A stretch of DNA of 64,000 bases from assembly GCA_963662945.1 (NCBI GenBank), contig OY759974.1, positions 448,001 through 512,000 on the forward strand, in the 5' to 3' direction. The stretch comes from Arcobacteraceae bacterium (lineage in GTDB: Bacteria > Campylobacterota > Campylobacteria > Campylobacterales > Arcobacteraceae). Position numbers: made by a program. Each line of letters starts with the position of its first letter. The stretch's first letter is position 1. This document shows, piece by piece, positions 24,001-33,000 of the stretch.

Positions 24001-27000
24001 TAAAAATTTAACTTTACCTAGACATGCTTATTATTTATCTATTATCTCATGGATGATTGCTGGTATAGCTGCTTTTATATTACATTTTTTTAAATATCCT
24101 ACATTTCCAATAGGAAGTCATATCAAACTTCTTAGCAGTTATTGGATACTTGGTGCTGCAATTTTATCACAGCTTGAATATATATTATTCGAAAAAAGAT
24201 TTAAAGAGATTGCTACGAATGTTGATATTTCTAAATATAATGAAAATATTTCGAAAAGAATAGTTGAGAGCTTTATTATTCTTACTGTTGCCCCAGCAAT
24301 AACTATTTTTTTAATACTAGCTCGATACTATCACGATAATGTTTTTAATAACTCTCATATTATTCAAGAGATAGGTTATGTTATAGCACTATTTGTCATA
24401 ACTGCTATTGCATCATCCCTCCTATTTTCAAAAATGTTAAAAAAAGATACAAAAATGATATTAAAAAATATTAAGAGTATTCAAAATGGTAATTATCAAA
24501 TCAATATTGATATTACAAGAGCTGATGAACTTGGAGAGATATCAAATGCAATAGAACATATGGCTACAAAAATTGATTCTTTAAATCAAGAGATTGTTAG
24601 CACCCAAATGGAAGTTGTAAATAAAATGGGTGAGATAGCTGAAACAAGAAGTAAAGAGACAGGAAATCATGTTAAAAGGGTTGCTCTTTATACAGAAGTT
24701 TTAGCTTTGAAATATGGTATGAGTGAAAAGGAAGCTGAAATTCTAAAACAAGCAAGTCCTATGCACGATATTGGCAAAGTTGGAATTCCTGATAATATTT
24801 TAAATAAAACAGGTCGTCATACTATTGAAGAGTTTGAGATTATGAAAACACATGCACAAATTGGTTATGATATATTAAAGAGTTCTGATCGTCCTATATT
24901 AAAAGCTGCTGCAATAGTTGCTTATGAACATCATGAAAAATGGGATGGAACTGGTTATCCAAGAGGACTAAAAGAGGAAAATATTCATATTTATGGTCGT
25001 ATAACGGCTGTTGCAGATGTATATGATGCACTTGGTAGTGATAGATGTTATAAAAAAGCGTGGGATGAGGGAAAAATTTTAGAATTGTTTCAAGAACAAA
25101 AAGGGAAACATTTTGACCCTACTATTATTGAAATATTTTTTGAAAATATAGATACCTTTAGAAAAATACGAGATAGTTTAAAAGATTAAAACTAAATAAA
25201 AAAACTCCCCAAGGATAACCTTGAGGAGTTTTAGAGTTGAGTAAAACTTTAGTTTTAATTCATAGAGTATTAGTATAAAATACTAAACAGCTTCTGCACC
25301 TGTTTCACCTGTTCTAATTCTTACTACTTCATCTACTGGCATTACAAATATCTTACCATCACCAATCTTTCCTGTTTTTGCTGAACTAGTTATTAATTTT
25401 ACTACATTATCTACTTCATCATCATTTACGATTAGTTCTAATTTTGTTTTAGCTAGGAAGTCTACTATATATTCAGCACCTCTATAAAGTTCTGAGTGAC
25501 CTTGTTGTCTCCCATACCCTTTTACATCTGTTACTGTCATACCTGTAATTCCAGCTTCACTTAGAGCATCTTTTACATCTTCAAGTTTAAAAGGTTTAAT
25601 TATTGCTTCTATTTTTTTCATTGAATATCCTTTCTATTATGCTTTTTTGAATTCTGGGTAACATTCAAGACCTGTCTCATGAATATCTAAACCATTGATT
25701 TCTGTCTCTTCATCTACTCTTAATCCAACGATCATATCTAGTATTTTCCAGATTATGAATGAAACGATAAATACGAATGCTCCAATTACTACTACACCTT
25801 TAAGTTGTGCCATAAATGTTGCACTTTCTGTAAATAATCCTACTGCTAATGTTCCCCAGATACCTGCTACTAAGTGAACTGATAATGCACCAACTGGATC
25901 ATCTATTCTTAGTTTATCAAAGAAAGGAACTGCTACTACTACTATTAAAGCACCTACTGCACCTACACCGAATGCGTACATCATACCTGCATCTGGAGCT
26001 GCTGTTACAGAAACTAGACCTGCTAATGCACCATTTAATACCATTGTTAAATCAACTTTTTTATAAAGTATTTGAGTTAAGATTGCTGCTACTATTGAAC
26101 CTGTTGCTGCTGCCATATTTGTATTTGCAACTACCATAGCAATACCAGTAATATCATCTTTAGAACCTAATGCTAATTGAGAACCACCATTAAATCCGAA
26201 CCATCCCATCCATAGAATGAATGTACCTAAAGTTGCCAGAGTAAGGTTTGAACCTGGAATTGGTTTTACTTTACCATCTGCTGTATATTTACCTTTTCTT
26301 GCACCAATGATTAGAACACCTGCTAAAGCTGCCCAACCACCAACACTGTGAACGATTGTAGAACCAGCGAAGTCAGAGAATCCTGCTAATATACCACCAA
26401 GTTCTGATCCACCCCATGTCCAGTGACCTTGTAGAGGATAAATTACACCACTTAAAAGAACAACGAAGATTAGGAATGGCCATAATTTCATTCTTTCTGC
26501 TACTGATCCACTAATTACTGAAGCAGCTGTTGCTACGAACATTACTTGGAAGAAGAAATCTGATGCTTTTGGGTATGTTGCATCTGCTGCATTTGCCATA
26601 TCTACTACTGATAAGCTTCCCATAAATGCTCCACCTTCTCCATACATTAGGTCATAACCTATGAAGTAGTACATTATACAACTAATTGAGAACAATGCTA
26701 AATTCTTTGTTAAGATTGTTGCATTATTTTTTGATCTTGTAAGACCTGCCTCTAACATCGCGAATCCTGCTGCCATCCACATAACTAGTATACCTGAAAT
26801 AACGAACAAGAATCCATCTAAGATAAACTTGACATCATTGAAATTTTCCATCTTGGAACTCCTTTTATTTTAATACCATTTTTGATATTTGTAAATAAAT
26901 TATTACATATTTTTTTTATTATTTTTTCATATATTGTGTATATATTTTATACATTACGCATAAATTTTTATTATAAAAAAAGGGTGATAGGAAAACCTAT

Positions 27001-30000: not shown

Positions 30001-33000
30001 CACAAGACTCTGCACCAAAGTCTGCAACAATTAATCTTGCACCTACTTTATCTGCATCTTCTTGAGTAAATTCACCAAGTGCTCTTGGGTTATTCATTCT
30101 ATCTTGTACTTTTCTACTATATTGTTCCCAAACGTTTCCTGTAACTAATTCATCTCTTGCCATAATATTTTTCCTTTATAATTTATTCTCTATTGTATTA
30201 ATCGTGTAAGTGTACACTAAAAGCTTGTTGTTTTGCATACGTCATAGATATATTTCTAAGACGAACTACAGTTGACTTCACTTTCTCAATAACATAATCT
30301 ATCTCTTCTTCTGTTGTAAATTTACTCAATGCAAACATTACTGTTGCATTTGCTATCTCTGTTTTTTCACCTAATGCTTCAACTACTGCACTTGATTCTA
30401 AATCTTCACTTGAACAGCTTGAACCTGTTGAGATATAGATACCATGTTGATTCATATCCCAAAGCATCGCTTCCCCTTCAACACCTCTAAAAGAGATTGC
30501 TACAAGGTTTTTGAGTCTTTTTACTCTTGGTACATAAGATTTTGTATCTGGTATTTTTAGAAGTTCATCTTCTAGTTTATTTCTCAATTTTTGTGTTGTA
30601 TGATCCATAAAAGAGAGGTTTATATTTGCTAGTTCTACAGCTTTTGCCATTGCTGCAACACCGTTATTATAAAGAGACCCACCTCTTTTTCCACCCATTA
30701 CATTTTTTGCACCATGGATAAGTGTTGTATATGGCGCTCCTGCTTTTATATACATTAAACCTACACCTTTTGGTCCATGGAATTTATGTGCTGAACAGGT
30801 AAAGTAATCTACACCTAAGTCTCTTACATCTACTTTCATTTTCCCCATTGCTTGGGCACCATCACTATGGAAGTATACGTTATGTTTTTTTGCAATTTCA
30901 CTTATTTTTTTAATATCTTGCACTGCACCTGTTTCATTTGAAGCCATAAGAACAGAGATTAAACATGTTTGAGGAGTAATTGCTTTTTCTAGTTCATCTA
31001 ATTTAACAAGACCATTTACATCTGTTCCTACGTAAGTAACTGCCATACCCATATCTTTACAGAATTTCAGTGGAGATTTTATACTTGAGTGTTCTGCCAC
31101 TGTTGAAATGATATGATTTCTACTATCACCTTTTAGGAAGTTATGCAAAAATGTTTTTATTACTGCGTTATTCCCTTCTGTTGTTGAAGAGGTGATGATA
31201 ATATCATCTGCATCATCTGCACCTATTCCTTCATACAATGTATCATAGGCATCATTTAACAATTTTCTTGCTTCTATACCTTTATTATAGATTACATTTA
31301 TATTTCCGAACTTCTCTATACTCTCACAGTAAACCTTCTGTACTTTTGGGTCTATTGGGGTTGTTGAGTTATTATCTAAGTATACTTCCATTATATTATT
31401 TTCCTTTTTTATTATATTAATTTTGTTCTGAAACTTTACACGTGAAACAATTTATCTGATCTTTACAATCCTCACACGCAGGAGCAATTTCACCAATACT
31501 ATCGTATATAAATTTTTTCCATAATTTGTCTTGTGGTTTCAAATCAAACAAAACTGGAAAATGTTCTTTCATAAATTTACCCATCTCTAGCCTGCTTTTA
31601 AAACCCAAATCTTGATAAAGATGATTTTCCATTAATGAAGTTTTCGCAACATGTACTGAGATAATATCTCTTGCTCTATCATTTTTTGCATATTCTTGTA
31701 AAAAGGATATCACCTTTTGTTCTAATATTTTTAACGGCGTTTCACTTTTTATACTCATAATGTCATCTCCATCATTTTACCATTTACAATTTCACCAAAT
31801 TCTACCCCAAATTCAAAACAATCCATTAGTTCTTCTTTTGTTGGAATAAGTTTGATTTTTTTAGGTTCTAAGGGAACTCGAAATTTTAAATTTTTTAATC
31901 GTCCTTGCATCATATCTACAGCTTCGCCACTCCACCCATACGAGCCAAAACAACCACCAAATTTTCCTTTTTTCTCTAATAACATCATACAGCTAAGTAG
32001 ATCCCAAACAGGCTTTGGAACATCCCCATTAATTGTTGGACTTCCTATAATAATACCTGTACTCTCTTCTAAAATTGTAAGCATATTTTGTTCATCAAGT
32101 GCAGTTAAATCATAAATATTTGCTATTAAATTATCATTTGATTCAATACCATCATAAATACTTTCTGCCATATCTTTTGTATTTTTATAACTTGTTACAT
32201 AAAAAATTGAAACAACTTTTTTACCATGTCGTAAATCTTCTTTATTACTCCATTTTGCATACTTATCTATGTATTTTTGAGGATCATTTCGCATAATTGG
32301 ACCATGAAGATTACAAATCATATCAATTTTACATTTTTCATACAATCGTAAAGCATTTAAAACATCTGTTTTAAATGGTCGCATAATATGGTCATAATAG
32401 TATTTAAATGCATAGTCAAAATCTCCCACTAAATCATCAAATAACCTATCATCAAAATAATGGCTTCCAAAAACATCACCACTAAATAATATCTCATCTT
32501 CTACTAAATAACTACTCATAGTTTCAGGCCAATGAAGATTTGGTGTACTTAAAAACTTTAATGTTTTATTTCCAATTTTAAGTTCTTTATTTGTCCAAAC
32601 ATTTTCAAGATTCATATCATCTGTTTTAGCAATTGATTTTAACATAGGACGAGCCATAGGAGAGATAAATACTTTAGCATTGTTTGTTCGTTTAACTAGT
32701 TCAGGTAAAGCACCACTGTGATCTGGTTCTAAGTGGTGCATCACAATATATTTTATATCTTCATATTTACAAACAGATTCTATTTTTTTGAAAAACTCAT
32801 CTTGAAACTCTAACTTAACAGTATCAAAGATTACAATACCATCTGTTGTTTTAAGCAAATAAGAATTATAAGTAGTACCATTTGCCGTTTTCATAATAAT
32901 GTCAAATGTTCGAATATCTGGGTCACTGACCCCAATATAAAAAAGGTCTTTTTTTATTTGTATTGCTTGTTTCATAGTTATCTTTATGCAATAACTATTC

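Follow-up and report, generated by a model that had tools for sequence, protein, structure and literature searches.

The window analysed here, a 64,000-nt stretch of the Arcobacteraceae bacterium contig OY759974.1 (contig positions 448,001 to 512,000), contains nifHDK, a gene for a NifA-type activator and, on the minus strand, a block of support genes whose order is flavodiiron protein, NifQ-like protein, NifS, NifU, ClpP, GlnA, AmtB and P-II (Table 1). The partners of the last six are ordinary chromosomal loci situated 130 kb to 1.17 Mb away, and a second clpX lies just left of the window, at genome positions 446657-447835. An earlier note on this DNA had described the copies as lined up beside nifHDK; the block is indeed near nifH, but an HD-GYP gene on the other strand intervenes, for which the nif loci of three relatives (G006, G013 and G041) hold no match covering 40% or more of the gene. 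The assignments of GlnA (TIGR00653, type I glutamine synthetase, 627.8 bits vs a cut-off of 429.15), ClpP (TIGR00493, proteolytic subunit, 357.3 vs 308.6) and AmtB (the Amt models TIGR03644, 575 vs 514, and TIGR00836, 346.8 vs 343.3) exceed the cut-offs of their models. The P-II gene is matched over its full length (E 4e-51) at scores below cut-off (NF008111, 172.1 vs 202; NF007946, 157.5 vs 181), and the best full-length matches of NifS (TIGR03403 and TIGR03402, 410 vs 587.7 and 347 vs 530.75) and NifU (TIGR02000, 212 vs 273.3) are likewise below the equivalog cut-offs, the best NCBIfam model for NifS being the epsilon-type one. The flavodiiron-type gene scores 290 bits with the flavorubredoxin-like model NF008887, below its cut-off of 635.

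Table 1. Features of the nif-linked block and its surroundings, in window coordinates; "genome" refers to positions along the whole contig.
Feature	Window position	Strand	Remarks
NifA-type activator gene	4391-5911
nifD + nifK	19009..22024	-	TIGR01282, 827 bits; TIGR01286, 754 bits
nifH	22565..23467	-	TIGR01287, 425 bits
Sigma-54-type element ahead of nifH	23523-23538		conserved GG-N10-GC
MASE10-HAMP-HD-GYP gene	23777..25189	+	470 aa; separates block from nifH in this genome
Near-identical block 1 (amtB + P-II)	25187-26871		= genome 927622-929306; 1685 bp, 1 mismatch, 99.94%
P-II gene (glnB/glnK-type), nif-linked copy	25283..25621	-	NCBIfam NF008111
amtB, nif-linked copy	25637..26851	-	NCBIfam TIGR03644
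Palindrome TGTATA-N5-TATACA	26937..26953		upstream of nif-linked amtB, outside block 1
glnA homology block	26973-28461		vs genome 607230-608720; 89.5%, 1505 aligned columns (self-BLASTN)
Terminator-like hairpin + T run	26975..27006	-	follows glnA; largely within the glnA homology block
glnA, nif-linked mosaic paralogue	27034..28461	-	NCBIfam TIGR00653; 89.8% nt identity to the distant glnA
Palindrome TGTATA-N5-TATACA	28539..28555		upstream of nif-linked glnA
clpP, nif-linked paralogue	28565..29167	-	NCBIfam TIGR00493
clpP homology block	28576-29144		vs genome 1649102-1648534, inverted; 89.3%, 569 bp (self-BLASTN)
Near-identical block 2 (nifS-nifU)	29183-31394		= genome 856605-858816; 2212 bp, 4 mismatches, 99.82%
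nifU, nif-linked copy	29183..30163	-	partner genome 856605-857585
nifS, nif-linked copy	30198..31391	-	partner genome 857620-858813
NifQ-like gene	31417..31758	-	short, 113 aa; Pfam PF04891 NifQ, E 2.9e-18
Flavodiiron-type protein gene	31755..32975	-	first gene of block; same slot in relatives
Sigma-54-type -24/-12 element, GG-N10-GC	32987..33002	-	~12 nt upstream of flavodiiron gene start

A self-BLASTN search of genome positions 468000-484000 against the whole 2,497,315-bp contig reproduced all four previously noted matches to distant loci, two of them near-identical and those of glnA and clpP at 89-90%. The sole mismatch of block 1 (window 25289) falls on a third codon position near the 3' end of the P-II gene, and those of block 2 (29189, 29192, 29195 and 29204) are synonymous, also at third codon positions, and no more than 22 nt from the nifU stop. 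No residue differs between the two loci in the GlnB/P-II, AmtB, NifU and NifS proteins (100% identity). Directly outside both blocks the flanks are unrelated between loci, and the edges of block 2 are those of coding sequences, namely the nifS start codon plus 3 nt and the nifU stop codon. The two blocks are exceptional in this genome, since, apart from four rRNA operons and one three-copy element of 1.2 kb, no other dispersed sequence of 800 bp or more recurs at 95% identity or above. NifS/NifU-type genes occur at two loci, and a tblastn search of this genome found no other cysteine desulfurase or scaffold homologue.

The comparison with relatives, which was missing from the earlier note, revealed a conserved block whose copies are alike within genomes. 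Seven species of the genus, the one studied here (its genome labelled G000) among them, carry the nif-linked block with its gene order preserved; sharing one genus, these are not independent samples. The block adjoins nifH in full in G006, G013 and G041, and is found without nifSU, ~8.7 kb from nifH, in G011, G015 and G020. Nucleotide identity between the two copies within each of the seven genomes is 100, 100, 100, 100, 99.3, 97.5 and 98.9% for amtB and 99.7-100% for the P-II gene; in the four genomes with a nif-linked pair it is 100, 97.4, 98.7 and 98.2% for nifS and 99.6, 96.6, 98.5 and 98.9% for nifU. Between species, amtB and the P-II gene are 80-96% identical and nifSU 87-96%, so that paralogues within a genome are closer than orthologues between species in 7/7 genomes for amtB/P-II and in 4/4 for nifS/nifU. 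Maximum-likelihood trees pair the amtB and P-II copies by genome in six of the seven, those of G015 branching without resolution at their clade's base, and the nifS and nifU copies in all four; a single clade of nif copies is rejected by the AU test (p 4e-64 for amtB and P-II, 7e-77 for nifSU). The amtB-P-II copies are identical over the whole block in G000, G006, G013 and G041, and patchy mismatch patterns between copies are seen in G006, G013, G041, G015 and G020. Homogenisation is not continuous, because 31 mismatches separate the amtB copies of G015 and 64 the nifSU copies of G006. The distant glnA, clpP and nifSU loci are the ancestral ones, since their flanks share synteny with the corresponding single-copy loci in G008, a closed genome in which no nifH was found. 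With the gene order of the nif-linked block conserved as well, the duplication predates the species; no ancestral assignment is made for amtB-P-II, because flank synteny between the distant amtB locus and that of G008 is absent (0 HSPs). Two nifSU pairs, one of them nif-linked, are carried by G043 and by a Sulfurimonas genome as well, and there they cluster by locus and share only 65-75% identity, so homogenisation is a trait derived within this genus.

The glnA and clpP copies, which the earlier note had correctly called diverged, turn out to have a more complex history. The nif-linked glnA, whose protein is 89.3% identical to that of the other copy, is a mosaic made by conversion in which the 5' third is protected: its first ~500 nt (~170 codons) are distinct in every species, and the remainder holds lineage-specific converted tracts. 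Identical runs lie at differing positions, with lengths of 210 bp (G000), 259 bp (G013) and 350 bp (G020), and those of G000, up to 210 bp, fall in the 3' two thirds. When polymorphic sites were permuted 10000 times, the observed run was never reached in five of the seven genomes, and was reached 19 and 93 times in the other two. A clade of nif copies is rejected for the 3' part (p 2e-7) but not for the 5' part (p 0.084); among the residues that separate nif-linked from ordinary GlnA in the seven species, 8/9 are at positions 21-93. The nif-linked clpP, for its part, is an old paralogue: its copies form one clade (support 100/100), and a Sulfurimonas genome too has it adjoining nifH. In the nif-linked clpP a single clear converted patch was found, in G000, at alignment positions 327-429 (matched by 1/10000 permutations); the corresponding counts per 10000 are 82 in G006, 160 in G020 and 275 in G041, and the tract test is not significant in G013, G011 and G015 (1342-7267 of 10000).

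Conserved GG-N10-GC elements stand before both the flavodiiron gene and nifH. The sigma-54-type element ahead of the flavodiiron gene, found by eye and with 3 mismatches to the consensus, keeps its GG and GC elements in G006, G013, G011 and G015, and may act as the promoter of the block. A scan of the window for sigma-54 sites with at most 2 mismatches gave 29 matches vs 21.2 expected, a number reached by 5/100 shuffles; it is uninformative overall, and the nifH site alone was used from it. It was considered that the amtB copies might carry differing upstream operators, but this was rejected, as the same palindrome stands at both loci; the idea that the copies are kept for different regulation is weakened accordingly.

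We propose that the near-identity reflects concerted evolution by recurrent ectopic gene conversion within a conserved nif-linked support block, a reading to which we assign a probability of about 0.88, because copies pair by genome while orthologues diverge between species. The two-copy structure, its conservation across species, the pairing by genome and the mosaic tracts are direct observations; the recombination mechanism itself, judged from sequence patterns, would presumably be RecA-dependent. Non-reciprocal homologous recombination would recur between the nif-linked copy and its distant partner, and would extend over no more than the coding sequences and ~100 nt besides. It would be frequent and complete for amtB with the P-II gene and for nifS-nifU, partial and lineage-specific in glnA, where the first ~170 codons would be kept apart, and rare in clpP. 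The flavodiiron gene would be preceded by the sigma-54/NifA-type promoter at which transcription starts, and the palindromes could represent separate operators ahead of glnA and amtB. The block would supply additional capacity, co-expressed with nif, for assembling Fe-S clusters, capturing and sensing ammonium, making glutamine and Clp proteolysis while nitrogen is being fixed.

Assemblies are notoriously vulnerable at near-identical repeats, and with a single assembly it could be supposed that one locus had been placed twice, or that diverged paralogues had been homogenised by mis-mapped reads during polishing. The earlier note had raised this worry, which is allayed by read-derived contigs from runs to which the source data of the present assembly may belong. 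Both blocks stand at ~2x flank depth in three runs, and in two of them (X19 and X21) the contigs fork where the blocks end and continue into the flanks of either locus. In X19, unique flanks have a depth of 45-53, the contig at window 25481-26871 a depth of 100 and that at 29205-31394 a depth of 121; contigs end at 25187, 26871, 29205 and 31394, and the loose ends at 25187 (block 1) and 31394 (block 2) lead into the flanks of the distant loci. In run X23, from a second strain, the blocks reach 21-23 vs 9-12 in most flank bins, again ~2x, and the nifSU contig shows 29 differences from this genome. Both nifSU copies appear to have changed together in that strain, because the nine tabulated sites are all at full depth. 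A metagenome run (X1) yielded short mixed contigs of 95-99% identity and was left out of every claim. Since the seven genomes, separately assembled, also share the two-locus layout with within-genome identity that varies from 96.6 to 100%, an artefact is extremely improbable.

The earlier note had offered very recent duplication or ongoing gene conversion, and of these it is conversion that the data support. A segmental duplication that is very recent and limited to this genome, in which near-identity would merely signal youth, would agree with the 99.8-99.9% identity and the sharp edges of the blocks; it is nonetheless very unlikely, given that the slots of the nif-linked copies are shared by seven species (amtB-P-II) or four (nifSU) with orthologues that have diverged by 4-20%, that the trees place copies together by genome, and that conversion between pre-existing paralogues, unlike a random segmental copy, would be expected to leave edges at coding-sequence ends. 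It could instead be imagined that the ordinary copy was re-copied whole over the nif-linked slot, independently in each lineage. Such single long events fit the four genomes whose amtB-P-II blocks are identical throughout, but they would still be non-reciprocal homologous recombination, that is, a long-tract version of gene conversion, and the patchy mismatches of five genomes, together with the short glnA tracts, demonstrate partial events; we regard such re-copying as very unlikely. Extreme purifying selection or codon constraint acting without recombination is barely credible: all six proteins do have conserved core functions, yet orthologues differ by 4-20% between species while copies within a genome share species-specific states, and the differences of strain X23 stand at full depth in both copies.

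Rather tentatively, it can be hypothesised that selection has shaped the conversion pattern, through oligomer compatibility in AmtB, P-II, NifS and NifU and through nitrogenase-dedicated isoforms of GlnA and ClpP. Were this doubtful proposition true, the former would be kept identical so that the products of the two loci mix freely in oligomers, and a GlnA with a distinct N-terminal domain and a ClpP with distinct termini could differ in regulation or choice of partner; the block would then constitute a natural experiment on which parts of a paralogue must differ for a nif-specific role. Nitrogen fixation in this genus is accompanied by its own support genes beside nifHDK, and inside one operon there is a gradient of conversion, complete in two pairs, limited by domain in glnA and almost lacking in clpP, which marks the N-terminal domain of nif-linked GlnA and the ClpP termini as candidates for nif-specific function. 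On the practical side, identical blocks of 1.7-2.2 kb break short-read assemblies of such genomes, and phylogenies of nifS, nifU, amtB and glnA in this group mislead if the copies are taken as independent genes.

Several components of the block recall known systems. NifS-NifU is the general, housekeeping Fe-S assembly system of Campylobacterota such as Helicobacter and Campylobacter, and the present genome similarly has only the NifS/NifU-type desulfurase and scaffold; it differs in having a second, protein-identical pair in the nif cluster, a pair that is diverged in Sulfurimonas and G043. P-II and ammonium-transporter genes are tied to the control of nitrogen fixation in glnK-amtB operons and in nifI genes inside nif operons. 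Here too a P-II gene is paired with amtB near nifHDK, but amtB comes before P-II, the P-II protein is the same as that of the non-nif copy, and the pair lies outside nifHDK and not between nifH and nifD. In the Azotobacter vinelandii nif cluster, NifB and NifEN levels are reportedly regulated by ClpX2, in work of Martinez-Noel et al. from 2011; the nif region described here likewise holds a second Clp component, namely the clpP of the block, together with an additional clpX. A limited literature search found no published account of Arcobacteraceae nif-linked copies under gene conversion. Concerted evolution by gene conversion is described for Salmonella's tuf genes and for the nifH reiterations of Rhizobium etli, with conversion patches of several hundred nucleotides (PMC8223754). 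Our case resembles them in its dispersed copies closer within a genome than orthologues, its patchy conversion and its homogenisation, whereas the tracts here span whole two-gene blocks of 1.7-2.2 kb. Unlike those cases, four unlinked ordinary loci are gathered in one nif-linked block instead of one gene being reiterated, and the intensity of conversion differs strongly from gene to gene, with the 5' third of glnA protected. Concerted evolution of bacterial duplicates being already known, the block described here is a clear new instance of it and not a new mechanism.

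The BLASTN comparison of genome positions 468000-484000 with the whole genome (2,497,315 bp, one contig, 28.9% G+C, no N) reproduced all four matches claimed in the earlier note, namely near-identical second copies of amtB-P-II and nifU-nifS beside nifHDK and copies of glnA and clpP at about 90% identity (see table; gene families from NCBIfam and Pfam). Block 1 (amtB-P-II) carries one mismatch between its copies, at window 25289, and block 2 (nifSU) four (window 29189, 29192, 29195 and 29204), all in the last seven nifU codons; the five are all synonymous, the P-II, AmtB, NifU and NifS proteins being identical at both loci and GlnA 89.3% identical. 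Homology to the distant loci is restricted to coding sequence plus short margins: in block 1 it begins 20 nt before amtB and ends 96 nt beyond the P-II stop, in block 2 it begins 3 nt ahead of the nifS start codon and ends with the nifU stop codon, and in glnA it reaches from the start codon to 61 nt beyond the stop, while the clpP match falls within the gene. Directly beyond the edges of blocks 1 and 2 there is no sequence relationship.

Coordinates of the nif region, its distant counterparts and the palindromic sites
Feature	Window	Genome	Strand	Details
Flavodiiron-type protein	31755-32975		-	NCBIfam/Pfam
Short NifQ-like protein	31417-31758		-	NCBIfam/Pfam
NifS	30198-31391		-	NCBIfam/Pfam
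NifU	29183-30163		-	NCBIfam/Pfam
ClpP	28565-29167		-	NCBIfam/Pfam
GlnA	27034-28461		-	NCBIfam/Pfam
AmtB	25637-26851		-	NCBIfam/Pfam
P-II protein	25283-25621		-	NCBIfam/Pfam
MASE10-HAMP-HD-GYP gene	23777-25189		+	between P-II gene and nifH
nifH, 119-aa ORF, nifD, nifK	19009-23467			in this order
119-aa ORF	22102-22461		-	between nifH and nifD
Two molybdate-type ABC transport sets, three TOBE-domain proteins	12885-18843			directly left of nifK
NifA-type activator	4391-5911			GAF, sigma-54 interaction domain, HTH
Second clpX		446657-447835	-	165 nt left of window; 522 bits, above TIGR00382 cut-off
Other clpX		1678383-1679606
Block 1 match	25187-26871	927622-929306		1685 bp, 99.94%, BLASTN
Block 2 match	29183-31394	856605-858816		2212 bp, 99.82%, BLASTN
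glnA match	26973-28461	607230-608720		89.5%, BLASTN
clpP match	28576-29144	1649102-1648534		inverted, 89.3%, BLASTN
TGTATA-N5-TATACA	26937-26953
TGTATA-N5-TATACA	28539-28555
TGTATA-N5-TATACA		929356
TGTATA-N5-TATACA		929539
TGTATA-N5-TATACA		1852781
TGTATA-N5-TATACA		2284395

Genome-wide, dispersed repeats with a length of at least 800 bp and an identity of at least 95% are limited to blocks 1 and 2, four rRNA operons, one of which (genome 930275-936107) is about 1 kb away from the distant amtB-P-II locus, and a 1.2-kb element in three copies of 99.6-99.8% identity (1037544-1038773, 1212966-1214202 and 1784825-1786029). Perfect tandem arrays occupy genome 953374-964719 (period ~315 bp, 11 kb) and 1640354-1645038 (period ~312 bp, 4.7 kb), with the ordinary clpP locus some 3.5 kb beyond the end of the second. 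Six or more other genome loci share 85-91% identity with the 3' part of a PAS-MCP chemoreceptor gene (window 55105-56102), and such genes may be another family with partial homogenisation. The MASE10-HAMP-HD-GYP gene, whose stop codon overlaps the initial bases of block 1, shares 67-75% identity over its final 600 nt with six or more paralogues in the genome. The nif loci of the relatives G006, G013 and G041 gave no match to 40% or more of its length, and among these loci the gene occupies this position in this genome only. The 119-aa ORF gave no Pfam or NCBIfam family (best match E 0.014), and a homologue stands at the same position in most of 80 Campylobacterota nifH loci.

The earlier note had left open an assembly error as the source of the near-identity. 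Public runs of two organisms held 0.88-0.96 of the sampled words, and their read-derived contigs were placed on window 24000-32500; as these runs possibly include the assembly's own source data, the comparison is a test of the assembly method, not of the sample. In run X19, depth is 45-53 in the unique flanks, 100 over 25481-26871 and 121 over 29205-31394, and contigs end at 25187, 26871, 29205 and 31394; of these ends, the loose ones at 25187 and 31394 continue into the flanks of the distant loci; run X21 gives the same edges. Run X23, from a second strain, has depths of 9-12 in most flank bins versus 21-23 over the blocks. An artefact is ruled out by this approximately doubled depth, together with the branching of contigs at the block edges into distant flanks. 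At 29 sites the X23 nifSU contig departs from this genome, and all nine of those tabulated are at full depth, so both copies in that strain appear to bear the same changes. In short-read assemblies of relatives, contigs also terminate where the amtB-P-II and nifSU blocks begin or end (G002:C226, which contains glnA-clpP only, G009:C8 and others), which is what collapsed near-identical repeats would produce there too.

A DNA search of 41 genomes and of sequences added later, the relatives being Arcobacteraceae metagenome-assembled genomes, showed that six other species of the genus carry the nif-linked block as well. It is complete and adjoins nifH in G006, G013 and G041; in G011, G015 and G020 it lacks nifSU, has the order flavodiiron-NifQ-ClpP-(one extra gene)-GlnA-AmtB-P-II and is separated from nifH by about 8.7 kb. 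NifH occurs in 14 of 28 genomes of the genus; in the closed genome G008, where NifH gave no match, all four gene sets are single-copy. The flanks of the distant glnA, clpP and nifSU match these single-copy loci, which marks them as the ancestral sites; those of the distant amtB locus have no match to the G008 locus. Among 80 Campylobacterota nifH loci examined, two (L033 and L034) have the full block within 10 kb of nifH; a Sulfurimonas genome shows the order flavodiiron-NifQ-NifS-NifU-ClpP-nifH, and locus L063 flavodiiron-NifQ-NifS-NifU.

On comparative sequence grounds, we propose as the best explanation of these copies that ectopic gene conversion has acted recurrently on a nif-linked support block, which is itself conserved. 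The earlier note's suggestion of conversion between the nif region and the housekeeping loci is corroborated by coding sequences from eight genomes, in which identity follows the genome rather than the locus and the tracts differ between lineages. Each gene has two loci, and their positions are conserved across species. Nif-linked and distant copies within a genome are 100, 100, 100, 100, 99.3, 97.5 and 98.9% identical for amtB and 99.7-100% for the P-II gene, as against 80-96% between species for both; the values are 100, 97.4, 98.7 and 98.2% for nifS and 99.6, 96.6, 98.5 and 98.9% for nifU, against 87-96%. In maximum-likelihood trees, copies pair by genome in six of seven cases for amtB + P-II (the two G015 copies are unresolved at the clade base) and in four of four for nifS + nifU, and a clade uniting the nif-linked copies is rejected by the AU test (p 4e-64 and 7e-77). 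In Campylobacterota, NifS-NifU is known as the general system for Fe-S assembly. Only one nifS is present in G011 and in G015, and no NifS or NifU homologue was found in this genome beyond the two loci. The nifSU pairs of the Sulfurimonas genome and G043 are only 65-75% identical and group by locus in a protein tree (100/98 and 94/93), whereas in this genus the nif-linked pairs fall within the clade of its own ordinary copies, which indicates that homogenisation is derived in this genus.

The glnA copies, 85.9-93.5% identical within genomes, are mosaic: the initial ~500 nt are diverged in every genome (65-85% in sliding windows), and the remainder holds identical runs of 210 bp (this genome), 259 bp (G013) and 350 bp (G020) at differing positions. 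When polymorphic sites were permuted, the observed run was reached in 0 of 10000 trials for five of seven genomes and in 19 and 93 for the other two. Copies pair by genome over the 3' part in this genome, G013 and G011, and a nif-copy clade is rejected for that part (p 2e-7) but not for the 5' part (p 0.084). Nine GlnA residues tell every nif-linked copy from every ordinary one, and eight of them fall within positions 21-93. In clpP the nif-linked copies make up a single clade (100/100) and thus represent an old paralogue; the discriminating residues are found at both ClpP termini, and this genome has a single converted patch, at alignment positions 327-429, which 1 of 10000 permutations matched.

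The process would be non-reciprocal homologous recombination between dispersed repeats. By BLASTN, three of the four copy pairs have direct orientation, and since crossing over between such pairs would remove 130-450 kb, only non-crossover conversion events should survive. Block edges that coincide with the limits of coding sequence agree with conversion between paralogues that already existed and had unrelated flanks.

It can be surmised that, together with nitrogenase, the block would supply additional capacity for Fe-S assembly, for the capture and sensing of ammonium, for glutamine synthesis and for Clp proteolysis. Conserved GG-N10-GC elements ahead of the flavodiiron gene and nifH, with the NifA-type activator gene nearby, suggest its co-expression with nitrogenase. 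The genome contains exactly six sites with the palindrome TGTATA-N5-TATACA, where base composition predicts ~1.7. Four of these sites lie upstream of nif-linked glnA, nif-linked amtB and distant amtB (twice), and the palindrome is kept at these places in seven relatives, which makes it a candidate operator of a nitrogen regulator. Sharing it, both amtB loci are probably under the same regulator, which counts against the copies existing for different regulation.

With regard to known systems, a nif-linked ClpX2 in Azotobacter reportedly controls NifB and NifEN levels; here, a second clpX lies at the edge of the nif region. Our literature searches found no description of the nif-linked block. 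Gene conversion driving concerted evolution of bacterial protein-coding duplicates is established (PMC8223754). The present case is a new, unusually graded instance of that known process and not a new kind of system.
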